Origin: an uncultured archaeon
Lineage (GTDB): Archaea > Asgardarchaeota > Thorarchaeia > Thorarchaeales > Thorarchaeaceae
Reading direction: 5' to 3'
Length of the DNA: 64,000 nt
NCBI GenBank assembly: GCA_964458565.1
Contig: CAYWJO010000007.1
Coordinates: forward strand, 32,001 to 96,000
The position numbers and the translations under genes are program-made. The notes beneath the pieces are model-generated. The model ran no database searches. It saw nothing but the letters and a program-made list of their open reading frames with translations, and was not told the DNA's origin. This document shows positions 48,042 through 63,164 of the stretch, piece by piece (the stretch's first letter is position 1; every line of letters starts with the position of its first letter).

Positions 48042-50144
48042 CTATCTCTTGACCTCACCAAAAAGAGATTCAAATTCCTTGGCTTTTTCATGGAATCCAT
48101 ACTTCTTCCAAGCCCCTATCGCAATCTCAAGAATCTCCTGTGCGTTACTTCTTAACTTATCGTCACCCAGTATTTTCCAAGCTTTCATTAACAGGCTTAG
48201 AAGCGAATACCCCATCATTGCGACTTCATAATCGTGTTTGCTCATATCTTGTAGGGAAACACGATTCAATACCTCAATAATGCTAACAAATTGTCTGAGT
48301 TCTTTCATTTCGATGAAGTCTGTTGCCTCTGATAAGAGGTATGTTAAGGCAATTATGTCATCTCTGCAGACAAGACCCTGAGTCATGAAAAATTGGTGAA
48401 CTGACAATACCGTTTTCAATGCATTATATTGCACTTCTGACTGACAACTCTTGTCCAAAACCTTAGATCCAAGAGATGCCAATGCCATCATGATATTTCC
48501 CACATTCGTAGCGAATGTCATTGGGTCTAGAATTCTTAGTGCATCAACATCTCCCACGTCAAGAGTCTTAATGGTCGCTAGTATCAGCTTGATTTCGTCA
48601 TGATGTAATTCACCGGCAATTGTAAGTACAGGTGATATTGCATTCATAAATACATCAAGAGAAAGACGGCCTCTGAGTTTTGGCCACTCCTCTTCCAGAA
48701 CCAACACAATATCATGCAGGAAATCGGCAATATCAGCAAGATTACTGTCTCTCTCACCTCCTGTAGTTAGATGGAAGTATTCTGCGTAAGCAACACTCAA
48801 ACTTTGAAAGACACTATCCACTGTGTAAGAGAAGAGAGGTATGTTGAATCTGAGAAGTTTTCTGAAATACATGGAGTATAGTGATATGACCTCTTTCAGA
48901 AACCCTCTCTTTTCTCCAATTGAAAGAACCGGGGACTCAGCTATAGCTGTCAATAGCGTGATATAATTCTGAAGCTGTAAGGATCCTGTCTGGCCTGCAC
49001 GGATAATTTCACTCTCAATAGATTCTTTGTTATTCTGACTGATTACGCTATCAAGTAGTTTCACCGTAGTACCTATTCTAACCTTCCACAAACCAAGTTC
49101 ATCTTTGAAGTCATCCATACTAGTCATACTGTATAATTTTTGAAACAAAGCACTTCTCTCGATGACCGCATCTAAATAGCTGCAAATGACATCGAATCCA
49201 TGTTTTTCAAATAGCATCGAGAGCTGTTTAGCAAAATCAGGATGGTCTCCTATTCTCGAATCAAGAAAAACAAAGGATTTGAGTAGACAGTCTTCATTAT
49301 CTTCAATTTGGAAGGTTTTGATTGCGTGTTCAAATGAATGTTCATAATCAATTGGTGCAATCTCACCAAAAATCCTACCTATCATACTCCTTCCAAGCTG
49401 GTATAACGTTCCAGATGGAAGTGAATTCGCAATACCACGGAATATCTCTCGTGGGGGTGCTCGTGTTTTAGTCATAGTGGATGCAAGGGCTCCCATTTTC
49501 AGTGCAAATAACTTGACAGCTGGATTGTCATGTTTCAAACTAGCTATACACGCTTTGTCAAACGCTCCATTTTTTGCATATCGCATTGCACTGTCAACAT
49601 CAGTTTCAATGCTCTCTGTTAGATTTTTCCACTCTTCTTCAAGCTCGACTGTTTCAACAGTGTTCTCTAAATCATCAAGTATCTGTTTGTATGTGGGATT
49701 TTTCTTCAAAGTTTCTAAAATCGGAATCCATGTTGTTTCTAATATATCACTCAAACTGAATTCTAGACTATGCTTCACATATGAATCAAGAATTGCGCAT
49801 ACTAGATCTTTGTGCAAGTCCGTAACGCTCCCATCAGCAGGAGGCACGCGGGACTCATCAATCTCTTCAGCAATAATACGAATTAGTATATCCATGTAAT
49901 CTTCTGCTCTGTCAACAAGGGCTACAATAGTATACCCCTTCTTACTCTCTGTCATAAGCAGTTTCTGTTCTCTGAAATCGAGCTTCAATACATTACCTGA
50001 AGATATCGTTGAACTCAATGTCTTAGTGGCTTCAATTAGAGCTCCAACTAGCATATCGCTTCTTGTTGCAAAATTGCTTTTGACCTGGACTGAAATGCCG
50101 CCTTCTGAAAGAACACCAATCAGACGTATCATTAGGAGCACCAA
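48042..50144 (-). CDS. Longin-like N-terminal domain plus alpha-helical solenoid protein
   Basis: IRLIGVLSEGG....(helix LVGALIEA...LS)...G....LDF....L.......YTIVALVD..(helix) longin pattern; remainder helical. Confidence 0.7.
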   Translation of the reverse strand: MVLLMIRLIGVLSEGGISVQVKSNFATRSDMLVGALIEATKTLSSTISSGNVLKLDFREQKLLMTESKKGYTIVALVDRAEDYMDILIRIIAEEIDESRVPPADGSVTDLHKDLVCAILDSYVKHSLEFSLSDILETTWIPILETLKKNPTYKQILDDLENTVETVELEEEWKNLTESIETDVDSAMRYAKNGAFDKACIASLKHDNPAVKLFALKMGALASTMTKTRAPPREIFRGIANSLPSGTLYQLGRSMIGRIFGEIAPIDYEHSFEHAIKTFQIEDNEDCLLKSFVFLDSRIGDHPDFAKQLSMLFEKHGFDVICSYLDAVIERSALFQKLYSMTSMDDFKDELGLWKVRIGTTVKLLDSVISQNNKESIESEIIRAGQTGSLQLQNYITLLTAIAESPVLSIGEKRGFLKEVISLYSMYFRKLLRFNIPLFSYTVDSVFQSLSVAYAEYFHLTTGGERDSNLADIADFLHDIVLVLEEEWPKLRGRLSLDVFMNAISPVLTIAGELHHDEIKLILATIKTLDVGDVDALRILDPMTFATNVGNIMMALASLGSKVLDKSCQSEVQYNALKTVLSVHQFFMTQGLVCRDDIIALTYLLSEATDFIEMKELRQFVSIIEVLNRVSLQDMSKHDYEVAMMGYSLLSLLMKAWKILGDDKLRSNAQEILEIAIGAWKKYGFHEKAKEFESLFGEVKR

Positions 50145-50451
50145 TTATTTTCTAGCTCGACAATACTTTGGTAAACCCCCCGAAAAAGATTCTCCATAGG
50201 TACTCTCATATGTTACACCCATTTAAAGCTCGCCGAACCATTATATTCAGGTTATTTCTGTCAATTGGTAATATTGGAAACCATGAGGGAATTTGTTGCA
50301 ATTAATGATCCACGCATTGGAAGAAAAATCAAGAATGGTCGATATAATAAATTCCAAGGTAATAGATGCATGGCTGGACCCTGAAACTCTCCATGAAATT
50401 ATCGCCTTCAAACCAATTCGATGAAGATTACTATCTCGATGTTGTCCGTTC

Positions 50452-52008
50452 TCATGTAGAATCCCATATTTCATCTTGTACATAGTTACGTCCTGATTTC
50501 ATGCAAATCTCCGCCTTGGTTAATTCACACCCTAGATACGAAGCATGACTAAGATGACTGATTATTCCTCTGGTCAATATGGCCTGTAACAGAGCATTAG
50601 CTGTCTCGGACTTCAAGTTAATTGTTGAGTTGTCTGACTTTTTATGCTGGCAGAGTATTCTTCTTCTACGCCGATCCACTGCAATCCTAAAACAACCTTT
50701 AGGATCAGTTTGATGCTTAGAAGTTTCCTTCATGACAACTTCAAAGCTATCATTGTCGCTTAATGTCTGTGGATCAAATTGCGGAGATTTGATATAAAAT
50801 GCTGAGAATCCTATATCTCTAGGTGGAGCATTCAAAATCTTAGCCGCAAAGGACATCTGACTGGCAAGATGGAGTTCTTTTGTACTATACACGGTAGAAG
50901 CTCTCTCCTCAGTTGTGAGAAACACTGAGATTCCTAATTCAATGCCCAAACAAGCAAGTAATGCGTTAACTCCTGTTGTATCCGAGTCTATGAACTCTGT
51001 AACATTCCCAAAACCTGCCAAAAATGGTCTATCGGAATCTAATTGACGACACATGTAATAAGCAGTCAATGATTTCATTAGTCCCGGATGAATCGCAGCT
51101 TCCATCAGTGGATCGGCAAATAGCTTAGTATAGCCTTTCTTTTCTAACTTTTCACAAATCTCTTTACACAATCTAGCTCGTTCTGACGGCTCATTTGGAA
51201 AAACACCCTCTGACACATTCGTTGGAAGGCAGACAATCGCTACATCTTCTGGAAGTCGTTGTACTACACCTATGTTTCCATGGTCAACTGAGAGAACGAT
51301 TTCAGCACCCGCATCAACTCCTGCTAGAATTTCTGAAGGATTCAGTGTGTCAATACTGACAGGCAGTCCTAGTTTTTTAACTTCAGTAACTAGTTCTGCT
51401 ATCTTTTCAGGGTCTGTTTTCTCTATGTTCGTACCAAGGTCTATGATATCTGCCCATTCAACAAATTTCTTTGCTTTCTCCAGTGACTCATCAATCGAAC
51501 GAGTGGTGACATCTACAACCTCCGCCATGACTTTTGGAGGGAAATCCAATCCTATTGGAATGCCTGATATTAGCTTAAAGTTACGGGTTTTGAAACTAAC
51601 TTTGTCTTCTAATTCTTGGATATATTGGTGAAGATTCTCCTTTTGTTTCTCCTTGATTATAATATCAGCAGATTCAATTGGTGATAGCAGGTGTGCAAAA
51701 TCTTCGAACCCTCTTAGGAGTAAAGGCAAGCCCGAAACATTTCTAGTACCTTTTAGTACACGTGTTCTAAGTTCTCTTCCGACCTGGGTGAAATCTCCTT
51801 GGGCCATTCCAGAGATAATAATCACATCCGGATCATGTTTGGATATGAACTCCAATCCATGTCTTAGCACCAATCTGGTCGTTGTGAAAGCAGCTACTGA
51901 AATTGGAAGGACATCAACATACACATTGTCAAACGCTTCTACACTTCTTCTAACATCATCTTGAGCCATTCTTCCTGTCAAAAGCAGTATCCTGCTCTTC
52001 TTCGACAT
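50452..52008 (-). CDS. Archaeal dihydropteroate synthase-like protein (MJ0107-like, with DUF4346)
   Basis: LLLTGR.A, VAAF, KGT, ADIIDLG, VSIDT, ADP, GNVTE..D.D, DPKG.F.I, HA.YLG.EL.KAE. Confidence 0.88.
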   Translation of the reverse strand: MSKKSRILLLTGRMAQDDVRRSVEAFDNVYVDVLPISVAAFTTTRLVLRHGLEFISKHDPDVIIISGMAQGDFTQVGRELRTRVLKGTRNVSGLPLLLRGFEDFAHLLSPIESADIIIKEKQKENLHQYIQELEDKVSFKTRNFKLISGIPIGLDFPPKVMAEVVDVTTRSIDESLEKAKKFVEWADIIDLGTNIEKTDPEKIAELVTEVKKLGLPVSIDTLNPSEILAGVDAGAEIVLSVDHGNIGVVQRLPEDVAIVCLPTNVSEGVFPNEPSERARLCKEICEKLEKKGYTKLFADPLMEAAIHPGLMKSLTAYYMCRQLDSDRPFLAGFGNVTEFIDSDTTGVNALLACLGIELGISVFLTTEERASTVYSTKELHLASQMSFAAKILNAPPRDIGFSAFYIKSPQFDPQTLSDNDSFEVVMKETSKHQTDPKGCFRIAVDRRRRRILCQHKKSDNSTINLKSETANALLQAILTRGIISHLSHASYLGCELTKAEICMKSGRNYVQDEIWDST

Positions 52009-52122
52009 ATATCACCACTCCCAAATCATAAAGACTGAACCCTTTGAAGAATTCTCTGGTTCCCCTGGTATGTTCGTTTAATTTATGTAGACTGCTTTAC
52101 TGTAAATCGGATGGTGTGATTA

Positions 52123-52710
52123 TTGACTGAAGATGATAAGCACAAGGATGTTCATTTTGCAACCACTCTTGAACTAAATGTTGAGAGAATCAAAGGTGAT
52201 GGCTACATTCTTGATATTGGTGGAGGCGGTGAGGGTGTTATTGGTCAACTTGAGGGACGAAGAGTTGTTGCAATTGATATTCGCAAAGATGAACTTGAGG
52301 AAGCTAATGTTGGCGATTATCTCCGGGTTGTAATGGATGCTACAGACCTTAAATTCTTGGAAGGGAGTTTTCCCACTGTTACGGCATTCTTCTCGATGAT
52401 GTATATGGATAATGAAATGAAGGAGAAAGTCTTCAGAGAGATATATCGAGTTCTTGCTCCAAAGGGAGAATTCCTCATCTGGGATTTAGTTGTTCCCAAA
52501 CAATTCGATGAAACTAAACGTGTGTACGCTATATTGTTGAAAATTCATCTGCCTGATAGGACTATTGAAACGGGGTATGGCTGTCCTTGGGCCAAACGTG
52601 TACAAAACTTCTCTGATTTCAAGGATTTTGCAATGAACGTTGGATTTGATCTTCTTGAGGAGGACATTGGAGAACATTCTTTCTTCCTCCGATGGACAAA
52701 ACCAGAATAA
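52123..52710 (+). CDS. Class I SAM-dependent methyltransferase
   Basis: ILDIGGGGEG, MDA, E..RVL.P.G. Confidence 0.88.
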   Translation: MTEDDKHKDVHFATTLELNVERIKGDGYILDIGGGGEGVIGQLEGRRVVAIDIRKDELEEANVGDYLRVVMDATDLKFLEGSFPTVTAFFSMMYMDNEMKEKVFREIYRVLAPKGEFLIWDLVVPKQFDETKRVYAILLKIHLPDRTIETGYGCPWAKRVQNFSDFKDFAMNVGFDLLEEDIGEHSFFLRWTKPE

Positions 52711-52865
52711 CCTGTTCCTAGGAGTCCGTTTGCTATTGTATTTGATATGTTTCAGCGTACTCAGTAACATTTATAACTAAATTATGTATAGTACTATATA
52801 ACATAGAGTATATGGTGTTACACAATGGTAAACAACATAAATCGTTTCAATGGCGGTAACAACGA

Positions 52866-53237
52866 ATGAGTAAATTGCATCGAAAAGCCCTTGATGAGTT
52901 TGACCGCTGGTCGAAAGAAGTCAAGAGAGGTGCTGCATCATTGGCGATACTATCAGTCTTGGAAGGCGAAAGCAACTATGGTTATGAGATAGTAAATGCT
53001 CTGAAACGGAAAGGTGCTGATTTTCTCGCTTTTGAAGAAGGTACAGTGTATCCTCTTCTTAAGAGGCTCGAACAACGAGATCTTTTGAAGGCTGAATGGA
53101 ATTACGATGATCCTGCAAAGCCGAGGAAGTACTATACCACAACCGCGGAGGGTAAGGAAGCACTTCGACTGATGAAGGAAAAGTGGAATGAACTTGGGAG
53201 AGAAATGGAACGCATTTTAGAAGGTGACGCACTATGA
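52866..53237 (+). CDS. PadR family regulator
   Basis: YGYEI, EGTVYPLL.RLE, RKYY..T..G. Confidence 0.93.
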   Translation: MSKLHRKALDEFDRWSKEVKRGAASLAILSVLEGESNYGYEIVNALKRKGADFLAFEEGTVYPLLKRLEQRDLLKAEWNYDDPAKPRKYYTTTAEGKEALRLMKEKWNELGREMERILEGDAL

Positions 53238-54352
53238 CAAGAGATCCAGATAGAGTAATTGAAGAATATTTAGAACGTGTGAAAGTATATCTGCCACTAG
53301 GCAGCGAAGATACATTGACAGAGATTCGGACCCACATCTTAGATTCAGCCGAACGAATAGGCGAAGGCAAGGTGACTGAGGGGTCTGTTATAATGGCGAT
53401 TGAACGAATTGGTGAACCCCAAAGAGTTGCTAATGAATACGCAGGCACAGGCGAGAAAGTAGGTCCGGTTCCTGCTGAATATGTACAACCATTATTTAGA
53501 ATTCTGTTGACTCTTCTTGCAATCAGTATTGCATTAATTATTGGACTAAATGTAGTCGGGATAGCATTTGATGCATTTATCGATCTTAGCGTTCTCCCGT
53601 ATTACTTCCCAATAGTAGTCGTTCTGAATGTCTTTATCGTTGTATCCATAATTGCCCTGATTTCATTGATCGTGGACCGCGACAAGCGGATTACAGAGAG
53701 AACTACACTTGAGGCTATCTTTGGTGCTGGAAGTGAAGGTTTCAAACCTAAAGGTCGTCTGGATGCAGCTGGTGAAGTATTCTTTGGTTTCCTTTGGGCA
53801 TTAGTGATCATTCTTCCTCCGGTATTAGCTGCTCTAAATCCAGCTATCCTCCTCCCAATGGTCATAGCAGCATTTCTGTTGCTCATCGGTTCCGTAAAGG
53901 GGTCTCTCTTCTACACTGCCGGCGAGAACAATCTCAACTTATTGTTTGAAGCCCTATTGAGTATTGCATGGATTATCCTTGCATTGTTTCTAGCTGGAGT
54001 TCCATATCCTATGGACAAAATCTACTACAATACTAATGGCGTCTGGATGACTATGACTGTGGAGGAACTTACTACTCTTGTACCAATTGATGTATTTGAC
54101 CTCACAATTGTTTTCGCAATTGGTTGGAGCATCTTCATCTTCATTCTTGTAGTGACCAATGTCTGGAGAGTATTGGTATCAGTATCTAAGATATCCCTAT
54201 ACCTGCGAGATGGAAAAGGTTGGTGGTGGCAAGGTGGCTGGGGTAAGCCACAATACAGGCGTAGTCGCTGGTATAAGAGATTCTTTGCCAAAGATGACAA
54301 TGAGTCAGAAGAATACACAACTTACACTGACGGTTATACGGGAAACGAATAA
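53234..54352 (+). CDS. PadR-coupled membrane protein with N-terminal HAAS-like domain
   Basis: IEEYL..V...L.....EI..HI...G.P..VA.EY; multiple TM; ATGA overlap with padR. Confidence 0.8.
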   Translation: MTRDPDRVIEEYLERVKVYLPLGSEDTLTEIRTHILDSAERIGEGKVTEGSVIMAIERIGEPQRVANEYAGTGEKVGPVPAEYVQPLFRILLTLLAISIALIIGLNVVGIAFDAFIDLSVLPYYFPIVVVLNVFIVVSIIALISLIVDRDKRITERTTLEAIFGAGSEGFKPKGRLDAAGEVFFGFLWALVIILPPVLAALNPAILLPMVIAAFLLLIGSVKGSLFYTAGENNLNLLFEALLSIAWIILALFLAGVPYPMDKIYYNTNGVWMTMTVEELTTLVPIDVFDLTIVFAIGWSIFIFILVVTNVWRVLVSVSKISLYLRDGKGWWWQGGWGKPQYRRSRWYKRFFAKDDNESEEYTTYTDGYTGNE

Positions 54353-54366
54353 CTAATCATTGATTC

Positions 54367-54397
54367 GAGAGCCCCTTCAAGGGGTTCTCTTTTTCTT
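54367..54397 (+). terminator. Hairpin plus T-tract
   Basis: GAGAGCCCCT-TCA-AGGGGTTCTC then TTTTTCTT. Confidence 0.6.
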
Positions 54398-54483
54398 ATT
54401 CTATTGATTTTGAAGCTATCTATCAACACATACGCGATTCTTATATATCCCTAATCTTTTTTCAAGCCTTCAGAACAAACGCG

Positions 54484-55362
54484 GTGACTTGTATGTGTAA
54501 ATGGTGCTTCAAACACGGTGATGGCGGCAAGTGGTATGAGAACGCCCGTCTCTATTCCAACGAATTAGCCGATGAGTACAACGCTCAAGAATACCTTGAA
54601 GAACAATGGAAGAATATGGAAACTTTGTTCATCAGAAAAATCATGGGATTCAATTCCATTGGTCTCGGGTATAAGATGCAGATGCCAATCATTGGCAGAG
54701 TAATACGGAAAGTCGTTGAGGGGCAAATCCATAGTGAAAAGAAGAACAGGAATCCTGTACGTGCGGATGGTCACTTTGGTCAGGTGTTACCAATGGAGGA
54801 TGCAGTTCATATCCTTGGTAATTTGGCAGCCGAACCTATAATCAAAAACTACTGCATATGCAGATACATGCAGCGAGGAGTAAAAGATGCTGTGTGCATT
54901 AATTTTGGGCAGCTTTCCGAAGTTATCGAGAAACACACCCGCTACATCCCAGAGGGTGTGAAATACCGACTAGATAGAGAGGAAGCTATTGAAGCACTGA
55001 TGGAACAGAACAAGAAAGGTTACGTTGCATCGGTATGGTTTCAACCAGTTCCCTACATCAATGCGATTTGCTCATGCGAAACTCCTGAGTGTGGTGGTCT
55101 CCGTCTGAGAAACGACTTTGGATTGGAAACAGTATACAAGGGTGAATATATCATTGAAATTAACATTGATAACTGTCAAGGTTGTAAGAGCTGTGTAAGT
55201 ATGTGTCAATTCAATGCTCTCAGATATCTCCCCTCAGTTGACCGAGTGATAGTTGACCTTGACAAGTGCTTTGGCTGTGGAGTCTGTAGACATGCATGTA
55301 AGCATGATGCACTCAATCTCGTCCCCCGTGAGTCTGTTCCAGGACAGGCTGGTAAGTACTGA
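54484..55362 (+). CDS. 4Fe-4S dicluster domain protein
   Basis: N-terminal C..C..HG.G.KWY, CICR, CSC...C, two CxxCxxCxxxC motifs; start probably 54493. Confidence 0.85.
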   Translation: MTCMCKWCFKHGDGGKWYENARLYSNELADEYNAQEYLEEQWKNMETLFIRKIMGFNSIGLGYKMQMPIIGRVIRKVVEGQIHSEKKNRNPVRADGHFGQVLPMEDAVHILGNLAAEPIIKNYCICRYMQRGVKDAVCINFGQLSEVIEKHTRYIPEGVKYRLDREEAIEALMEQNKKGYVASVWFQPVPYINAICSCETPECGGLRLRNDFGLETVYKGEYIIEINIDNCQGCKSCVSMCQFNALRYLPSVDRVIVDLDKCFGCGVCRHACKHDALNLVPRESVPGQAGKY

Positions 55363-55377
55363 TGATGGGTGGTAGAT

Positions 55378-55662
55378 ATGGTAAAGAAGACAAAAATCAA
55401 GATAGACCATTCGAAATGTGGATTTGCTGGCAATATCGACCCGAGAAGCTGCAGAAAATGCCTGTATGTCTGCGACCCCGCGGTTCTACTCCTTCATCCT
55501 ACACTCGAGCAACACCCCGATCCTCATAATCCAGAAAAATGGGTAATTGATGCCATATGGCTATCAAAATGTACAGGTTGTATGAAATGTTCTGAAATAT
55601 GTCCAGAGTCTGCAATTGAAGTCTTTCCGGGTGACTCATTGGCATATATCAGAGCTACATAG
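55378..55662 (+). CDS. Ferredoxin
   Basis: C...CRKC...C.P and CTGCMKCSEICP. Confidence 0.85.
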   Translation: MVKKTKIKIDHSKCGFAGNIDPRSCRKCLYVCDPAVLLLHPTLEQHPDPHNPEKWVIDAIWLSKCTGCMKCSEICPESAIEVFPGDSLAYIRAT

Positions 55663-55682
55663 GTAGGTACATGACATATCTC

Positions 55683-56672
55683 CTATCGTAAGGTAGTGAT
55701 GGGTCGTGATTGTAATATGATAATCTCGTTTCCTGTCATGCACCACTCAATATCCTGAGGCCCACCCATTTTCCTCTCGATTTCAAGACCAATCTCCGCA
55801 ACTTGCATCAAGGCATTATTGGTCAACGTGAACTCGGAACGTTTCTCTATGGGCGTATCCTTCATTACCGACTGAACATAACCATCCACAACTTCGGGTC
55901 GAGAAAATCTCTCCTTTGTTCCTATGCTCTTTGCAGTTACCTTGAGGGGATTCTTTGAGAGAATGAATGTATCTGGGATTACTTTTCCTGAAACCAAAGT
56001 GTTTCCAAGTCCCCACGTTGAGTTGATTAACATCTCATCTATATCATTATTGACCACATTTGCAGTGAACGTGACTCCAGACACATCTGCAGAAATCATC
56101 TCTTGTACAAAGACACTCATCATCATCTGGCTTAGGGGGATGTCTTTTGTATTCAGATAGATGACTGCACTTGGAGAAAACCCTGATATCCAGACATCTT
56201 TGATTGCTTTGATAACATCACTAGGCTCTACAATACACAGAAAACTCTCCGCCTGACCCGCAAATGAAATATCAGTACGATCTTCTATTGTTGCTGAAGA
56301 TCGGACCGCACATCCGTGTTCTAACTTTCTTGTTCTTGTTTGAAGATTGTGAAACTCTTCTATTATCTGTGTTTCAATATCCCGTGGTATGCTGTATCGA
56401 TTCACTAGTACTTGAAGACCTACTGCAAGCTCTAGCATCTCTTCATAATCATCACATCTCTCAATATTCATAACCAACTCTGACAGCTGAGGTATATCTG
56501 TTAACATCCTCTGAAAACATGAAGTAGTTACTGAGAAACCCAATGGAACTGGAAAACCCATTTCATGCAAACGTGCAAGATTGACCCCTTTTCCTCCATA
56601 TTTCACTACGTCCTTCGAATCAATCTCAGCTAAGGGAACTACCCATCGTATTGAGTCATCTCCTTCGTTCAA
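55683..56672 (-). CDS. Stand-alone PEP-synthase/PPDK nucleotide-binding (ATP-grasp) subunit
   Basis: GGKG.NL, VP.GF, AVRSSA..ED....SFAGQ, VQEM, SGV.FT, WGLG..LVSG...PD, PQDIEW, LQSRPIT at the C-terminus; GGTGAG RBS before TTG 56672. Confidence 0.92.
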   Translation of the reverse strand: MNEGDDSIRWVVPLAEIDSKDVVKYGGKGVNLARLHEMGFPVPLGFSVTTSCFQRMLTDIPQLSELVMNIERCDDYEEMLELAVGLQVLVNRYSIPRDIETQIIEEFHNLQTRTRKLEHGCAVRSSATIEDRTDISFAGQAESFLCIVEPSDVIKAIKDVWISGFSPSAVIYLNTKDIPLSQMMMSVFVQEMISADVSGVTFTANVVNNDIDEMLINSTWGLGNTLVSGKVIPDTFILSKNPLKVTAKSIGTKERFSRPEVVDGYVQSVMKDTPIEKRSEFTLTNNALMQVAEIGLEIERKMGGPQDIEWCMTGNEIIILQSRPITTLR

Positions 56673-56688
56673 GACCAACTCACCACAT

Positions 56689-57129
56689 TCATTCAGTAAG
56701 GAATAATGATCCGGAGAGGCCATCATCTGGCTTTATGATAACTTGCTTTCTGTTCAGTTCATGAGGATTATCAATTTTCACACCCATTAATGCAGGGATT
56801 TCAAACTCACGTGTTACTATAGCAAGATGTGACCCAAGAGCTCCAGACATGCAAACTACACCTGCTAACTTTGAAAGTACAGGTGCGAGAAAAGTTGTAC
56901 CTGCATCATCGACGAGAACGATCTTTCCTTCTGCACCCTCCTTCAATAATTGAATAACTTCTGGTACGGATGTAATATATCGTAGCTCTCCATCAGCCTC
57001 TAATTTTAGGGATATTAATCCCTGTCCAACCTTTTGCATCTCATTAGTCACCTTGCAAGCTTCAGCAATTGAATCCACTGGGAGATATAAGATTTGATAC
57101 TCTGTTTTACAATTAATCATATTGCGCAT
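56689..57129 (-). CDS. Stand-alone PEP-utilising phospho-His swivel (mobile) domain
   Basis: GVVC..G...SHLAIVTREF.IPA.MG with catalytic His. Confidence 0.88.
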   Translation of the reverse strand: MRNMINCKTEYQILYLPVDSIAEACKVTNEMQKVGQGLISLKLEADGELRYITSVPEVIQLLKEGAEGKIVLVDDAGTTFLAPVLSKLAGVVCMSGALGSHLAIVTREFEIPALMGVKIDNPHELNRKQVIIKPDDGLSGSLFLTE

Positions 57130-57211
57130 TTGATTGTGAAACCACCATACTTACATAATGGGCTGTCTAGTCTGAGAATAATCAGGCTGCAAGAGTGCCA
57201 GGTGAGATGCA

Positions 57212-58366
57212 GTGAAGGTGAATGAAGTCAATCCTCTATTACGTCATGTTTCCAATGTATTTAGTGATATCCTTGCTGAGCGTGGCCTTTTGGAATCTAA
57301 ACTCTTTCCGGTAAATGAGTACATCTCAGTAGCCTGTTATCACACATATGACCATCTATACAACTTAATGAAACTAGTCTGGGATAGGATTACTCCTGAG
57401 GATTTAGCCAAGCAGAGCAAGGTGCTACTTTCAGAGGTACATGCACTCTCTATCACTTACCAATGGCTCTATTATGGTCTGGGACGGATGGGTATTATAA
57501 ATAACAAGTTAGAGAGTGATGCCTCAAAAGAGCCTGAGGAGAAACGCAATCAGTGGAAATGGATTCTTGAGAACTGGTACAGACTAGCGAAGTCCTATTT
57601 CAATACTAATGAACCCACTGTAGCTGCTTCAGGAGGTACGAATCTAGCTTTTGAGGAAAAGACTATCGAATGGTTGAAGGATAATCTTGAACCTGTAGAT
57701 ACAGAACAGGTAAAGAAAATCCGAAGGTCTCTTGGTTCGGTGGAACTCTATGCTTTCTTGGATGAATGTGAAGCACGTGCCAAGCTCATAGATCACGGTC
57801 CATATCCAATTGATGACGAAATCCTTGTCATCTCAGAATTTACTCGCCTCAATGATGGTAAGGGAGAGCCTTGGATGCCATGGTCTGACACAGAGTCAAA
57901 ACTGCCGTCTTCTGCAATGGGAATAGCTATGACTATCAAAAATGTGACAGCCTTCTTCAATGATATCGGAACTATGATGATAGAACCCGGTGATTATTCT
58001 GGTCTTGTAACAAGCGTATGTGCATATACTAATCGAGGTCAAAAAATTGTTCCTATTGGTCTGGATGAGTTGCCTGCTTATGCTGAGGCTGCAGATGCAG
58101 CTCAAACAGAGCTTTACATGAAGTTTGCAGAGTGGGACAAGTCTAAGCTTATGCTTGCAGGAGCTGCTGCATACTGGCGAGGATTTATGAGATTTACAGA
58201 CCGAGTTGGTGTGAGCGATAAGATTGACTGGATGCTATCGAAGGACATTGAAGAGGAATACGTACCCTTCTTTATGGATAATGATGCAGATCCAGCTTTT
58301 ATTCGATTTGGACGTTTTGACGAGGATATGGAGGAGGACCCCACACTCTACTTATTGCCTGAATAA
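57212..58366 (+). CDS. Uncharacterised soluble protein, candidate substrate-binding subunit of the split dikinase
   Basis: 384-aa ORF with GGTGAG RBS; divergent from the swivel gene; motif FLDECEAR....DHGPY. Confidence 0.8.
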   Translation: MKVNEVNPLLRHVSNVFSDILAERGLLESKLFPVNEYISVACYHTYDHLYNLMKLVWDRITPEDLAKQSKVLLSEVHALSITYQWLYYGLGRMGIINNKLESDASKEPEEKRNQWKWILENWYRLAKSYFNTNEPTVAASGGTNLAFEEKTIEWLKDNLEPVDTEQVKKIRRSLGSVELYAFLDECEARAKLIDHGPYPIDDEILVISEFTRLNDGKGEPWMPWSDTESKLPSSAMGIAMTIKNVTAFFNDIGTMMIEPGDYSGLVTSVCAYTNRGQKIVPIGLDELPAYAEAADAAQTELYMKFAEWDKSKLMLAGAAAYWRGFMRFTDRVGVSDKIDWMLSKDIEEEYVPFFMDNDADPAFIRFGRFDEDMEEDPTLYLLPE

Positions 58367-58369
58367 GAT

Positions 58370-59275
58370 ATGGTGAATCGGATGGCATCTCTATCAGAAA
58401 AGGACGACCACGCACATGAGCCAGATGCAAAACTTGCTTGGCGTGAGAGCTATTACTTCAACTGGGTTGACCTTAAGCGGGGTATATCCGGATTTTCTAC
58501 AGTCGGGCTTCTCCCCAATGCGAACAAAAGGGAATTTGTCTTTGCACTCTTCTATGATAATGAGCGTGAAACCTATTGGGAAGAACCAGATGGTGCAATA
58601 CCTACTGATTTTCGTAACTCGTTATCATTTGATAGACTATCCTTTGAGATGATAGAACCCTTGAAGGAATGGCGAATAAAATACATTCTTGATCATCTAG
58701 AGGTGGATATCAAATGGAAAGCACGTTTTCCAGCATACGACTTTGGCGGTGGTTCCGGTACATCATGGAATGGACATTTTGAGCAATCTGGATTTGTTGA
58801 AGGCTCGATAAAACTACCTACCGGTCCCATACTTGCCTTCAAAGGTTATGGTGAGCGTGATAAGTCATGGGGATCAAGAGATTGGCACATCGAAGCATGG
58901 TATGCATTTCACGCTCAGTTCAAAGACATATCATTCGGCCTTCGACGTGATCAAGTGAAGGGAGAATTTGTTGTATCTGGTGGAATCTCGACCGTAGATG
59001 GACATGTACCAATTGAAAAAGTGGATGTGGATACTGAATACGTAGGCTCTCCGCAAAAGATACCCTATGCCGCGACTACAACTATACATGGTGCAGATGA
59101 GAGTCAATACACCATCAAATCAAAGACGCTTTCACCTAAGAGCTTCGTTCGATTTGAACGTGCATTTCAGGGTGGAAGTACTGAGCTATTCGAGAATATG
59201 GCACATCATTACTGTGAAGAACTTGATGAGGATGGGACCGGACTTTTAGAATGGTTATTCACCTATACAGAGTGA
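58370..59275 (+). CDS. Tocopherol-cyclase/CrtC-like double beta-barrel protein (DUF7064/7065-like)
   Basis: W.ESYYF, EPL.EW, HFEQ.G.V.G, G.RDKSWG.R.W, G.G..E. Confidence 0.7.
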   Translation: MVNRMASLSEKDDHAHEPDAKLAWRESYYFNWVDLKRGISGFSTVGLLPNANKREFVFALFYDNERETYWEEPDGAIPTDFRNSLSFDRLSFEMIEPLKEWRIKYILDHLEVDIKWKARFPAYDFGGGSGTSWNGHFEQSGFVEGSIKLPTGPILAFKGYGERDKSWGSRDWHIEAWYAFHAQFKDISFGLRRDQVKGEFVVSGGISTVDGHVPIEKVDVDTEYVGSPQKIPYAATTTIHGADESQYTIKSKTLSPKSFVRFERAFQGGSTELFENMAHHYCEELDEDGTGLLEWLFTYTE

Positions 59276-59503
59276 ATGAAATAACAGTTATGCAAATTAT
59301 CCAAAAATCGTACAATTTTATTGGTAATAAACTCACCAAAAAATCTCATATGGTTTTACATGTTAAATAGAGTGGAATTCTATTTGACATGCTATGAATG
59401 CCGCTCACTCTTTGTATAATCCAATACAGTCACACATCTATAGATAGATGTTAAAAACCCCCTTCAAAAATAACTACTCCCTCCCTTATTCCACAATCAC
59501 TGC

Positions 59504-59540
59504 AAAAACCGGACGGGGGCTGATATTTCCTCCGTCCGGT
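59504..59540 (-). terminator. GC-rich hairpin plus T5 downstream of the minus-strand hydrolase
   Basis: ACCGGACGG...CCGTCCGGT inverted repeat with adjacent A5 on the + strand. Confidence 0.6.
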
Positions 59541-59558
59541 AGTATTAGATTTCTTCTA

Positions 59559-61271
59559 TCATGTAAATGGTAATATTGTAGCTAACATCCATCCAAAAAT
59601 CAGTCCATTCAGGATGGCGGCGAGATAGTAGTTACCTGTCATTTTGTAGCAAAATACTATGATTACTGCACCTACAGCAAACCAGGGTGTGAATGCGAAG
59701 AAGAAGAGGAAGGAAAATCCAATCAGTCCTTGTGCCACTGGAAATCCTGTGAGGAGTCCCACTCCCATCTGCATAGCGATGAGTAAGAGATACGGGATGC
59801 ATTTGATAAATCCTGCTAGAATGGATGATTTTGTTATCGATCTGACAGGGCTTCCTGGAGCATCTGTTTTCATGATGCCCATCAACCACATTCCTTCAAC
59901 TAGACTATATATCATAAAGACAACAAAGTATAACGGAACATAGATTGCTCTAAGCGCAGTTAGGTCATTTAACCCTGGTAAGAAAGCTCGAAACTCTAAG
60001 ACGAATCCAATATCTACAACAAGTGTCCATGCATATAACCATACAAACACAACCAATGCAAGCACAAGTGTCTTCACAAACTTTGGAACAAATTTCACCC
60101 CTTCTCCCATTGTCCAGAGTCGTTTCCACTCGAGCCCCGACGGTTTCCTCGTTCTAAGAATGATATATAGGACCAGAGCAGCAATCAGTGCACTTCCCAA
60201 TATCCATGAGATAATTGAAGTTGCACGATACTGTGGTGATGGAAGGAACATACCAACTGCAAGCAGCGGAAGGAAACAACCCGCTCCAATTATTGCATAT
60301 ACTGAACCATAACCTAAGTATAGCTTTGTTGTTGCGGTATACTCCATTTCACGCTCATTCTTGAGACCACTGAAAGGTTTCAAATCAATTAGAATGGCTA
60401 TGAGAGGAAAGATCGTCAAGACAATACCAAGTACGCTCAGAAAACCCCCAACCAACCATAGTTGGTATATTTGGCTCTCGGAAGGGATCCAGTAGGAATC
60501 CTCTGTACCTTTCAGACTGTCCTTCACCCATTCAACAGTTTCACTCACAAAGAGTGGATCAACTGTGGAGAACAGGTGATTTGTCCGTGATACTATTAGT
60601 CTTCGCGCTGTTCCACTTGAAAAGTCACCATAGGTCACTCCAACCTCTATATCAGTTACTCCAAACGATGGTTCCAAGGCGGTGATATTCAGGGGATAGA
60701 TTAACTCATCAAACTCTCCCACTGCGACCAACATGTTGTTCGGGTAAGTCGAATTGGCTATAGCTCGCACCCGACTTCCAACAAGAACTATTGCATTAAT
60801 TGTTTGTTCCGAATCATCTAATGCACTCCATGAAATGTCTCCTCCCATGCTATGACCTATTAATGCCAATTGACTTTCATCGACAAAGTCACGATTTGCC
60901 AGATAGTCAATTGCCGCAGCTCCGCTCCCTGAACCCGGATCTGAATTTCCATGACCATTAGCATCTATTGTAAGCACGACAAACCCCCTTCGAGCAATCT
61001 CGATTCCAAATGCCATGAGCCACTCCTTGCTCTGAAGTATCCCGTGGATTACAACCACTCCAGGCATTGGATTTGACGAAGTTGCCTCAACAGGTTTTTG
61101 CAAAGTGCTATGGATCATGGATCCATCAGAGGATTGAAAATCAGCCTCCGTAACAATGACGGAACCAAATCCACTTTGAATTGTACCTGCTAGTCCAACG
61201 CCAGATAGCATAATCACCATACTGACAACTAGAACAACATACCTTAGTTTCATCTTGTGCGACTCCTGCAA
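59559..61271 (-). CDS. Membrane-bound alpha/beta hydrolase
   Basis: N-terminal TM, VVIHG, GHG.S, GHSMGG, G.FDE, H; about 8 C-terminal TM. Confidence 0.88.
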   Translation of the reverse strand: MQESHKMKLRYVVLVVSMVIMLSGVGLAGTIQSGFGSVIVTEADFQSSDGSMIHSTLQKPVEATSSNPMPGVVVIHGILQSKEWLMAFGIEIARRGFVVLTIDANGHGNSDPGSGSGAAAIDYLANRDFVDESQLALIGHSMGGDISWSALDDSEQTINAIVLVGSRVRAIANSTYPNNMLVAVGEFDELIYPLNITALEPSFGVTDIEVGVTYGDFSSGTARRLIVSRTNHLFSTVDPLFVSETVEWVKDSLKGTEDSYWIPSESQIYQLWLVGGFLSVLGIVLTIFPLIAILIDLKPFSGLKNEREMEYTATTKLYLGYGSVYAIIGAGCFLPLLAVGMFLPSPQYRATSIISWILGSALIAALVLYIILRTRKPSGLEWKRLWTMGEGVKFVPKFVKTLVLALVVFVWLYAWTLVVDIGFVLEFRAFLPGLNDLTALRAIYVPLYFVVFMIYSLVEGMWLMGIMKTDAPGSPVRSITKSSILAGFIKCIPYLLLIAMQMGVGLLTGFPVAQGLIGFSFLFFFAFTPWFAVGAVIIVFCYKMTGNYYLAAILNGLIFGWMLATILPFT

Positions 61272-61347
61272 TCGTGCCCCCTTTCTATGCTTGCCAAGAT
61301 ATATCTCATTGGGTTAACTTGAATGTATAATGCGATGGTGATTTTGA

Positions 61348-61977
61348 GTGCCTGAATGGGATGCTATCTTCAAGGAACAAGGGCGGGTTTTCACAGACCC
61401 CCATCCGGATATGAAGCGCATTACTGAGATGTTTCAGGAACGAGATATTAGACGAATACTCGATCTGGGGTGCGGTACTGGACGTCATCTAATCTATCTC
61501 TCAAAATGTGGTTTTGATATGTATGGATTTGATTCATCTCCCACAGCAATAGAGATTGCATCTCAGTGGGTAAAAACTGAGAGATTTGATGTACCAATTA
61601 TACTGCATAGAATGGAAGAGCCATTTCCATACGATGACAACTTCTTTGATGCTGTGATTTCTATTCAGGTCATTCATCATAACCTCACAAGAGATATCTT
61701 GATTACTGTGGAAGAAACAGAGCGTGTTCTTAGGAGTGGTGGTTTCTTTTTTGTTACATTACCCATTCTCACGACCGGACCTATGAATGATGATGATGAT
61801 TGGGCACTTGAGAAAATCGAAGAAGGTACTTATTTGCCAATGAAAGGACCCGAAAGTGGTATTCCACATCATTACTTCACAATAGATGAAATTAATGATG
61901 TTTTCAGAAATTTCAATATAATTGAATTATTCACTGACTCCAATAATCATCGTTGTATTCTTGGAATTAAGAGATGA
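61348..61977 (+). CDS. Class I SAM-dependent methyltransferase
   Basis: ILDLGCGTGRH, PY.D..FDAV, RVL..GG. Confidence 0.9.
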   Translation: MPEWDAIFKEQGRVFTDPHPDMKRITEMFQERDIRRILDLGCGTGRHLIYLSKCGFDMYGFDSSPTAIEIASQWVKTERFDVPIILHRMEEPFPYDDNFFDAVISIQVIHHNLTRDILITVEETERVLRSGGFFFVTLPILTTGPMNDDDDWALEKIEEGTYLPMKGPESGIPHHYFTIDEINDVFRNFNIIELFTDSNNHRCILGIKR

Positions 61978-61979
61978 AC

Positions 61980-63164
61980 CTACTCAAGTCCGAAATATGG
62001 AAAAATAAGATTCTTTACTTTAGCAATCGATTCATCTACTGCTCTCTGCACCTTGGTATGCTGAGTTTCAGGTAGTCGCTGTGGTCGATCTGTCCATCCA
62101 CCACGTTGCACATCAAATCCATAACTATGGCAGAGTTTTATCCATTCAGCAGGTAAAACCGGCGGAAGTGCAATATCTGCTAGATCTGCAAGTAAAATTG
62201 TCCATATCTTAGCAGTTGGCACTGGATTATAACCGCCCCCGCCAAGAATGACCAATTGTCTATTTCCAAGATGTACAAGTTGTCTCACTGTCATCGAAAG
62301 TCGACGATATGTTTCGTAAGTCAGCATGAGGTCTGCAAGTGGGTCCTGCATATGTGCATCAGCACCGGCATTCCACATTACAAAATCAGGCTTGTACGCC
62401 AACCAGATGGGAATCACAGCATCTTCAAATGCATTTGCGAACTCAACATCATCTGTCAGGGGTGGTAGCGGTATATTTACGGAGTACCCCTTGCCTTCTC
62501 CAATCCCCATATCTTCCGGTCTACCTGTTCCTGGAAAGAATCCCAAGCTCAGCTCATGCATTGAGATAGTTAGTACATTTGGATCATCATAGAATGCCTC
62601 TTGTACTCCATTACCATGATGCACGTCAGTATCTAAATACAGAACCTTCTTGTTTGGGAACTTCTCTTTGTATGCTTTGAGAGCACACGCGCAGTCATTA
62701 TAGTAACAGAATCCAGCCGCATTATCTCGAGAAGCATGATGAAATCCTCCAAAGAAGGACATAGCATCCTCAAATCTTCCCTCTGCTACTCCCATTACTG
62801 CATCTATTGTAGCACCAACAGGATAGCTTGCATATTTGTGCATGTCAGTAAAGACTGGATTTTCATCAGTATCCAACCCGAGACGTGAGGAAAATGCATA
62901 ACCCGTGTTACCAAAAAGCTCCACTGTTTCAATGTATGATTGGTCATGGTATAATCCTAATTCGTCCCTTGTCGCCAATCGCATCAGTTGTAGGGATATA
63001 CTTTCACTTTCAGTCATCCCTGCCATGACTGGAAGCTTCCACGTGATTTCAAAGCGTGCACGGTTCCAAAATGGGTTTGGTTCAGGTCTAGTTCTCTCTA
63101 GGTCATCTATCCCCTCCATAAGTAAAAACTCAAGAGGGTCGTACAATGCAGTCAACCTAGACAA
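61980..63164 (-). CDS. Histone-deacetylase/AcuC family Zn deacetylase
   Basis: GGFHHA, GFCYYND, YLD.DVHHGNG, FPGTG, GADAH..DPL, GGGGY. Confidence 0.93.
   Translation of the reverse strand: MSRLTALYDPLEFLLMEGIDDLERTRPEPNPFWNRARFEITWKLPVMAGMTESESISLQLMRLATRDELGLYHDQSYIETVELFGNTGYAFSSRLGLDTDENPVFTDMHKYASYPVGATIDAVMGVAEGRFEDAMSFFGGFHHASRDNAAGFCYYNDCACALKAYKEKFPNKKVLYLDTDVHHGNGVQEAFYDDPNVLTISMHELSLGFFPGTGRPEDMGIGEGKGYSVNIPLPPLTDDVEFANAFEDAVIPIWLAYKPDFVMWNAGADAHMQDPLADLMLTYETYRRLSMTVRQLVHLGNRQLVILGGGGYNPVPTAKIWTILLADLADIALPPVLPAEWIKLCHSYGFDVQRGGWTDRPQRLPETQHTKVQRAVDESIAKVKNLIFPYFGLE

Follow-up and report, generated by a model that had tools for sequence, protein, structure and literature searches.

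The window analysed here is a 64,000-nucleotide stretch of DNA from an uncultured archaeon of the Asgard family Thorarchaeaceae (contig CAYWJO010000007.1, positions 32,001 to 96,000). Its positions 55683-59275 carry four genes, all of which were found where the original prediction, made from the DNA letters, had placed them. A stand-alone ATP-grasp protein and a stand-alone phospho-His swivel protein are encoded on the minus strand; divergent from them, on the plus strand, are the genes of a 384-residue protein (P0003) and of a double beta-barrel protein (P0004). We discuss these genes as a candidate system for the ATP-driven dehydration of an alcohol, in which the first three products would form a dikinase and the fourth would act as a phosphate lyase. 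The features on which the argument depends are the following.

55683-56726, minus strand: stand-alone PPDK_N ATP-grasp protein, 347 aa, assigned from Pfam.
56689-57129, minus strand: stand-alone phospho-His swivel, 146 aa, with the codon of His101 at 56827-56829, assigned from Pfam.
57130-57211, no strand: divergent intergenic region of 82 bp, or of 172 bp with the swivel start at 57039.
57212-58366, plus strand: P0003, 384 aa, candidate acceptor or phosphotransfer subunit, from fusions, linkage and a complex model.
57281-57283 (R24), 57770-57772 (E187) and 57776-57778 (R189), plus strand: codons of the P0003 patch, from conservation and the predicted interface.
58370-59275, plus strand: P0004, 301 aa, DUF7065 double beta-barrel, candidate phosphate-eliminating C-O lyase, from homology to 25-phosphosteroid lyase (25-PSL).
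58859-58861, plus strand: codon of D164 in the P0004 motif R163-D164-K-S-W-G-S-R170, which is shared with 25-PSL.

On our reading of the sequence, the GTG start of the P0003 gene is preceded by an AGGTGA ribosome-binding box at 57200-57205. The P0004 gene begins 3 bp past the P0003 stop codon.

The product of the swivel gene (56689-57129) matches the Pfam family PEP-utilizers (E value 1.8e-10) and carries the sequence GALGSHLAIVTRE, in which the catalytic His is residue 101. The Pfam match and the motif together bear out the earlier claim that the phospho-His domain is encoded by an open reading frame (ORF) of its own. The His of the GSH motif is invariant in 19 swivel homologues. Their alignment with the protein opens at Met31, where most of them also have their first residue. 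Because the homologues begin at this point, Met31 (57039) is probably the true start of the protein, and such a start would make the divergent spacer 172 bp long. The 82 bp given previously is correct for the interval between the longest ORFs, but is probably not the real distance between the genes.

The ATP-grasp protein (55683-56726) matches PPDK_N with an E value of 8.3e-74 over profile positions 5-312 of 328, i.e., the domain is complete, and its C-terminus reads ...LQSRPITTLR. Candidate start codons are an ATG at 56726 and TTG codons at 56678 and 56672. The last of these, a TTG internal to the ORF that opens at 56726, had been taken as the start, and either start is possible. The nearest solved chains are those of an archaeal phosphoenolpyruvate (PEP) synthase (PDB: 8a8e; E value 1.5e-50) and of rifampin phosphotransferase (RPH; PDB: 5hv1 and 5fbs; E value about 4e-43). 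With an archaeal PEP synthase as the top solved match, the genes might be those of an ordinary PEP synthase or PPDK in pieces, the pyruvate-binding subunit of which is encoded elsewhere. The probability of this explanation is, in our judgement, practically negligible. The cluster contains no pyruvate-binding TIM barrel (PF02896/PEP-utilizers_C), as had been noted from the sequence, and the sole PEP-utilizers_C domain of the 3.7-Mb genome is located on contig C86, within a fused PEP synthase gene that combines ATP-grasp, swivel and barrel and is cut by the contig end. The genome-wide check found no orphan PEP-utilizers_C domain, i.e., no separate pyruvate-binding subunit of the kind against which the original prediction had cautioned. 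Furthermore, the split genes are tied to P0003 and to DUF7065, the family of P0004, in about 100 genomes. A split PEP synthase is thus contradicted by both the TIM-barrel check and the linkage, and since it lacks a TIM barrel the module is not a PEP synthase. The genome also encodes a 903-aa RPH/YvkC-type ‘PEP synthase-like’ protein on contig C22 (L076:612-3323), in which a long central domain lies between an ATP-grasp and a C-terminal swivel and which is distinct from both the PEP synthase and the split module.

P0003 has no match in Pfam or NCBIfam, its family profile detects nothing below an E value of 0.07 among PDB sequences, and a Pfam scan of 112 family members found no real family, so that its earlier description as uncharacterised stands. 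An exhaustive search of 1.84 billion representatives yielded 172 clusters that match P0003 at E ≤1e-3. The homologues are annotated as Thor-, Hod-, Hermod- and Promethearchaeota, the closest loci being those of Thorarchaeota metagenome-assembled genomes, and relatives beyond the Asgard archaea occur in Nitrososphaerota, Bathyarchaeia and Actinobacteria. The most conserved positions of the family are R189 and G196, which are invariant, followed by Y198, P197, W224, R24, R92 and the acidic residues 187 and 209. R24 is 89% conserved, position 187 is always Glu or Asp, and Y198 is 97% conserved, with Phe or Trp in two members.

The AlphaFold2 model of P0003, built from a 112-sequence alignment, has a predicted local distance difference test score (pLDDT) of 96.4 and a predicted template-modelling score (pTM) of 0.93. 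With this whole-chain model, Foldseek searches of the PDB gave a best E value of 0.1 with all template-modelling (TM) scores ≤0.15, the highest Z reached by VIA-align among 48,161 representative chains was 2.8, and no ESM Atlas representative exceeded a TM-score of 0.27. The result for the whole-chain model is ‘no match found’, which falls short of a proven new fold. No RPH chain was present among the fold matches, a comparison that had been suggested beforehand, and alignment of the P0003 family profile with the RPH-type central domain of the genome's own 903-aa protein gave an hhalign probability of 0.2%, a value with which remote kinship is still compatible. In the Atlas feature search the best scores, 0.88-0.89, lay under the 0.9 lead threshold; one of the clusters is terpene-synthase-like, and is a lead only.

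Gene linkage was surveyed in 400 species-level Asgard genomes, which were searched with each of the four proteins and in which gene positions were compared. Of these genomes, 111 have the P0003 family, 107 have a stand-alone swivel and 106 have both; DUF7065 occurs in 112, of which 109 also have P0003, and a stand-alone ATP-grasp of about 330 aa in 99, counts which, as the genomes are related, do not represent independent events. Among 115 swivel genes, 94 are located within 1 kb and 106 within 10 kb of a P0003-family gene; for 94 of the 115, the distance to an ATP-grasp gene is likewise no more than 1 kb. A DUF7065 gene is found at most 300 bp away from 114 of 148 P0003-family genes. Absence of linkage between homologues of the 384-residue protein and the swivel and ATP-grasp genes had been named as an argument against the predicted system; these figures, with 94 of 115 swivels at ≤1 kb and 106 of 111 genomes sharing both genes, demonstrate the linkage. 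Several Asgard families have the whole set in all genomes sampled (6/6, 3/3, 2/2 and 2/2), others have it in none (0/31, 0/22 and 0/14), and it is patchy in the Thor-type (32/85) and Loki-type (55/135) families. Orthologues from different families share 40-79% identity. Diverged P0003 paralogues (31-36% identity) adjoin diverged DUF7065 paralogues (26-32%), and because these are equally diverged and adjacent, the two families appear to evolve as a pair. The layout of the module has been rearranged several times, the genes being divergent, co-directional or duplicated, and they still remain together. Since the same genes adjoin in about a hundred other Asgard genomes, the arrangement is not due to chance.

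A direct connection between swivel and P0003 is provided by four representatives of 516-794 aa, in which an N-terminal swivel is fused to a P0003-like domain. Those with a name are annotated as ‘PEP-utilizing enzyme’ of Gordonia otitidis and Citricoccus zhacaiensis. In a set of 5.8 billion sequences no P0003 homologues of greater length were found, which is weak evidence; it was the exhaustive search of representatives that yielded the fusions.

In the predicted complex of swivel and P0003, the ipSAE had a median of 0.73, whereas none of three controls scored above 0.00. The mark applied to this score was attained by 58 of 80 solved complexes and by 2 of 110 mismatched pairs, a calibration that is only rough for a model which, like ours, used author-built alignments. 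The runs have at least 89% of their contacts in common, with a partner pLDDT of at least 86. In the predicted interface, the G-x-x-x-S-H loop of the swivel meets P0003 residues 23-25, 27-32, 187 and 189; because it joins the GSH loop to R24, E187 and R189, the His loop would be placed at the conserved Arg/Glu cluster. The outcome of this modelling, which had been proposed together with the original prediction, is that the His loop is predicted to dock on the most conserved patch of P0003, and the contact supports binding of the swivel at a plausible phosphoryl-transfer site.

Alternatively, P0003 might hold the swivel in the role of a scaffold, chaperone or regulator and not be the catalytic acceptor site, the substrate being phosphorylated in the DUF7065 barrel or in some other protein. 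The near-constant adjacency of P0003 and DUF7065 genes and the pairing of their paralogues would fit such a role, and suggest a physical complex of P0003 with the barrel. However, among the fusions found the swivel is joined to P0003 and never to the barrel, and the C-terminal extensions of long homologues bear no similarity to the barrel: those of P0204 and P0237 both gave a probability of <1% against the DUF7065 profile, which reveals no P0003-barrel fusion in these proteins. Moreover, the predicted contact of the His loop involves an invariant Arg and acidic residues that are typical of a phosphoryl-transfer site, and P0003 and swivel genes occur without an adjacent barrel gene in other archaeal phyla. 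We therefore consider such a role quite unlikely. Linkage, fusions and the complex model support the assignment of P0003 as the acceptor module, without recognisable fold, of a three-component dikinase. They likewise favour the earlier proposal that a three-part dikinase with the 384-residue protein as acceptor would phosphorylate a hydroxyl other than that of pyruvate.

The second protein of the plus-strand pair, P0004, matches Pfam DUF7065 with 42.8 bits (cut-off 27), the sole Pfam family at E ≤0.1, and NCBIfam Rv3169_fam with 39 bits (cut-off 150). A literature search for ‘DUF7065’ found no paper, and the titles and abstracts of the listed papers on ‘Rv3169’ indicate no functional study. 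The AlphaFold2 model (pLDDT 93.9) is a double beta-barrel of the AttH/kievitone hydratase/Diels-Alderase superfamily, the characterised members of which bind lipophilic isoprenoid or polyketide substrates. Foldseek ranked 25-PSL first (E value 3.5e-14; TM-score 0.73). Among PDB sequences, the P0004 family profile detected only entries of this enzyme (9fzn and 9g2i, E value 2.6e-11; 9g4c, E value 2.8e-10), with no hydratase chain at E ≤1. The VIA alignment with 25-PSL has a Z of 24.4 and a root-mean-square deviation of 3.1 Å over 271 residues at 19-20% identity, which is the highest identity in the structural alignments, other superfamily members giving 8-14%. P0004 and 25-PSL share the motifs YYFN and RDxSWGxR, and the positions of the latter are invariant in 32 homologues. 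In the 25-PSL entry 9g4c, which contains phosphate and desmost-1,4-diene-3-one, the Asp of this motif, at the position of P0004 D164, is replaced by Asn; as the ligand complex carries this change, we infer that the Asp has a catalytic role. P0004 came out as a member in every computational test run for the 25-PSL/DUF7065 family, and its partner kinase is of another class; a scan of 14 ORFs from 48042 to 63164 revealed no APH domain. The earlier label ‘tocopherol-cyclase/CrtC-like’ holds for the superfamily fold but not at the level of the family, for which there is no CrtC or tocopherol-cyclase Pfam match. Elimination of phosphate, formerly one of several options for the barrel, is the one backed by sequence-level homology.

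The order of the two activities might also be reversed, with the barrel acting first as a cofactor-free hydratase or cyclase, similar to CrtC or kievitone hydratase, that turns an alkene into an alcohol, and with the dikinase then phosphorylating the product to trap or activate it. In fold comparison the lyase (Z 24.4) does not stand out from kievitone hydratase (24.8) or AttH (26.8), the scores across the superfamily being 23.5-26.8 over 270-291 residues. In addition, swivel and P0003 genes of Nitrososphaerota and Bathyarchaeia are located beside terpene-cyclase-like and prenyltransferase-family genes with no DUF7065 gene seen, which would suit a pathway whose goal is the phosphorylated product. 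We nevertheless regard the reverse order as unlikely: 25-PSL is the only relative that can be detected by sequence, the hydratases being absent from the profile matches, the RDxSWGxR motif with the Asp that is mutated in 9g4c is common to P0004 and the lyase, and the Pfam families of CrtC and tocopherol cyclase are not matched.

In the proposed dehydration pathway, to which we give an even chance of being correct for these four genes, a three-component dikinase would be combined with a phosphate lyase. In the first step, the ATP-grasp subunit would use ATP to load His101 of the swivel (ATP → AMP + Pi + His~P), a chemistry of the family that is established in PEP synthase, RPH and HpeHI (PMC12167813). 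In the second step, suggested by fusions, gene linkage and the complex model, the phospho-swivel would dock on the Arg/Glu patch of P0003 (R24, E187 and R189), and the phosphoryl group would pass to the hydroxyl of a lipophilic substrate bound by P0003, most likely of the isoprenoid type and possibly tertiary. In the third step, for which homology to 25-PSL is the basis, the DUF7065 barrel would remove the phosphate to leave an alkene. The net reaction would be the conversion of an alcohol to an alkene, paid for by ATP → AMP. We would further expect an AMP-forming dikinase to make the phosphorylation irreversible, because release of AMP and Pi pulls an unfavourable step. Candidate physiological roles are the remodelling of isoprenoids or lipids, or anaerobic catabolism.

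The substrate of this pathway is probably a lipophilic, isoprenoid-type alcohol, judging from a cyclase and prenyltransferase context, from the neighbours of fusion genes and from the ligands of the barrel superfamily. In Nitrososphaerota (L077:4130-7128) and Bathyarchaeia (L078:660-4657), a squalene-hopene-cyclase-like gene (E values 1.6e-12 and 5e-8, respectively) is followed by a swivel gene and a P0003-like gene, and at the Bathyarchaeia locus a cis-prenyltransferase-family gene is next (E value 8.5e-9). These loci may reflect a different, terpenoid-linked use of the swivel/P0003 pair. In Actinobacteria, a DUF7065-family gene is located next to or near the swivel-P0003 fusions (hhalign probability 100%, E value 2e-42; Pfam E value 5e-5). 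The loci of the Gordonia type (L079:1-17728) and of the Citricoccus type (L059) contain a DUF7065-like gene together with dikinase parts of several kinds: a swivel-P0003 fusion, a free swivel, and a protein that joins PPDK_N to a swivel. The former also encodes a 577-aa protein with a C-terminal swivel (Rph_4th + PEP-utilizers), a 2OG oxygenase and a luciferase-like monooxygenase, and the latter two APH kinases, a Y_phosphatase3 protein, a P450, and aldehyde and alcohol dehydrogenases. Divergent from another swivel-P0003 fusion gene is a gene for a 137-aa protein (L060:5589-6002, minus strand) with a borderline match to SCP2 (E value 3e-4; 21.4 vs 21.3 bits), and a match to a sterol carrier beside the fusion hints at a lipophilic ligand. 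Of the two kinds of substrate that had been envisaged, lipophilic or aromatic, the gene context favours the former in its isoprenoid form, and nothing points to an aromatic compound.

Some of the neighbouring genes could be read as components of a phospho-relay or of a signalling pathway, in which the swivel would phosphorylate P0003 itself or another protein and phosphatases would reset the system. In one Asgard family (f14; L063:4951-8010, also L069), a gene for a seven-PAS protein of 1019-1145 aa separates the ATP-grasp gene from the P0003 paralogue, and the same loci (L063:10406-10852) encode, after the DUF7065 paralogue, a 148-aa PTP/DSP-type phosphatase (PF22784; E value 1.8e-22). These two genes may serve in regulation or in a step that resets the phosphate. 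A Y_phosphatase3 gene also follows an actinobacterial fusion gene, and the high conservation of Y198 in P0003 would agree with a phosphorylated residue. We think a relay very unlikely, as neither the window nor the majority of loci contain PAS or phosphatase genes, Y198 is replaced in two members by residues other than Tyr, and the constant partner is an enzyme of a lyase/hydratase superfamily. Elsewhere the neighbours are metabolic, i.e., P450, aldehyde and alcohol dehydrogenases, and terpene-cyclase-like and prenyltransferase-family proteins.

Several observations nevertheless weigh against the dehydration pathway. In six genomes of one Asgard family, no stand-alone ATP-grasp gene was found beside the pair at E ≤1e-40. 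At the Nitrososphaerota and Bathyarchaeia loci, there is no ATP-grasp gene within 6 kb and no DUF7065 gene in the DNA examined, where L077 ends about 300 bp past the P0003-like gene; as these loci show no DUF7065, phosphorylation need not always lead to elimination. The phosphatase genes beside the module in some lineages are not explained by dehydration. By structural score, the barrel is equally near AttH, kievitone hydratase and fungal Diels-Alderases, and it is sequence alone that singles out the lyase, within which the importance of D164 is deduced from a deposited mutant. The rough calibration of the complex score, mentioned above, belongs with these points.

Further genes surround the module in the window, and the following are conserved in related loci.

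54484-55362 and 55369-55662, plus strand: Fe-S pair, a 292-aa protein and a 97-aa ferredoxin-like protein, with Fer4 domains.
59559-61271, minus strand: 570-aa alpha/beta-hydrolase, convergent with the DUF7065 gene, with Abhydrolase Pfam matches.

The 292-aa Fe-S protein consists of an N-terminal CxCxxC, about 220 residues without a known family, and a C-terminal 2x[4Fe-4S] region. The pair is kept beside the module in 13 Thorarchaeota loci and is also found in one genome of another Asgard family (L067), where it is located downstream of DUF7065. It is a lineage-restricted accessory of the module, and we speculate that it could provide or take up electrons for an adjacent reaction. The alpha/beta-hydrolase gene is likewise present in 13 related loci, as a conserved neighbour in Thorarchaeota. 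More generally, genes for an HDAC-like protein, a methyltransferase, an acyl-CoA synthetase, the Fe-S pair and the alpha/beta-hydrolase recur mainly inside Thorarchaeota, and no universal partner beyond the four genes was found in the Asgard loci compared. In the closed Asgard genome G117 (L062:11576-16707, minus strand), three tandem genes for proteins of 537-552 aa lie directly beside the module, and the two of the three that were scanned encode B12-binding radical-SAM proteins. Elsewhere in the window, positions 50452-52008 (minus strand) encode a 518-aa protein with a pterin-binding domain in addition to DUF6513 and PterinBD-DUF4346. Four salt-marsh metagenome runs, not counting the possible source sample, contain 58-97% of the sampled words of 55683-59275; RNA runs were absent from the list for this stretch.

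Phospho-His dikinases have two known acceptor modules, the TIM barrel of PEP synthase and the helical domain of the RPH type. To our knowledge, anaerobic sterol degradation is so far the only setting in which an unactivated alcohol is dehydrated with the use of ATP by way of a phosphoester, and we know of no description of such a dikinase and phosphate-lyase system in archaea. We tentatively suggest, as a possibility that we place on the doubtful side, that P0003 has an unseen fold and is an old, third independent class of dikinase acceptor, given its presence in Asgard archaea, Nitrososphaerota, Bathyarchaeia and Actinobacteria, and that P0003 and DUF7065 would be parts of an archaeal system that dehydrates tertiary isoprenoid alcohols, with ATP → AMP as the driving reaction, and acts in lipid remodelling or anaerobic isoprenoid catabolism. 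A third, structurally unrelated acceptor module, if confirmed, would broaden the design space of phospho-His dikinases, and a gene-clustered archaeal version on a different kinase would make ATP-dependent dehydration a more general chemistry. Roughly one in four of the sampled Asgard species carries the conserved module. How these archaea metabolise lipids and isoprenoids matters for the archaeal-eukaryotic lipid question, and as a compact four-protein system the module is open to biochemical reconstitution.

Compared with PEP synthase and PPDK, the module has a homologous ATP-grasp and swivel but no PEP/pyruvate TIM barrel. It follows the same logic, from ATP-grasp to His swivel to a non-pyruvate acceptor, as RPH and the PRK06241/YvkC-type proteins. 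RPH has these parts on one polypeptide, with the helical acceptor domain in the middle, and sequence profiles reveal no relationship of P0003 to that domain. P0004 has the fold of AttH, CrtC, kievitone hydratase and the Diels-Alderases, but no sequence-level match to them.

The closest parallels among dikinases are the two-component small-molecule enzymes HpeHI, CreHI and phenylphosphate synthase PpsAB. They act on phenols, and their acceptor domain, a homologue of the domain with which RPH binds rifampin, continues at its C-terminal end into the swivel; HpeH can carry out phosphate exchange by itself (PMC12167813). As in these enzymes, the ATP-grasp is a separate subunit, here of 347 aa, and a swivel His would pass phosphate from ATP to a small-molecule hydroxyl; the residue before this His in the Asgard swivel is Ser, which is also the case in PpsA and CreH. 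In contrast to them, the swivel of the Asgard module is a free protein of 116-146 aa encoded on the opposite strand from the P0003 gene, which gives three components, and in the fused actinobacterial forms it is N-terminal. P0003 also differs in having no detectable similarity to the RPH-type acceptor domain, and the constant partner is a lyase-family barrel.

The closest parallel for the overall reaction is found in Sterolibacterium denitrificans, in which 25-hydroxysteroid kinase (25-HSK), the partner there of 25-PSL, phosphorylates the tertiary C25 alcohol and the phosphate is then eliminated to give a delta-24 alkene (PMC8449060, PMC11061730). This kinase is a 40-kDa, ADP-forming enzyme of the APH type, the reaction of which is freely reversible (Keq 0.34) because a tertiary phosphoester is energy-rich, and according to the authors no candidate lyase gene is located near the kinase gene (PMC8449060). 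Unlike 25-HSK, the Asgard kinase would have three parts and form AMP, as a dikinase does, and its genes adjoin a lyase-family gene. P0004 is about 60 residues shorter than 25-PSL, to which it has about 20% identity in the structural alignment. The comparison does not imply a steroid substrate. What the Asgard genes would share with 25-HSK and 25-PSL, as proposed here from gene content and homology, is a tandem of kinase and lyase for the ATP-paid dehydration of an alcohol.

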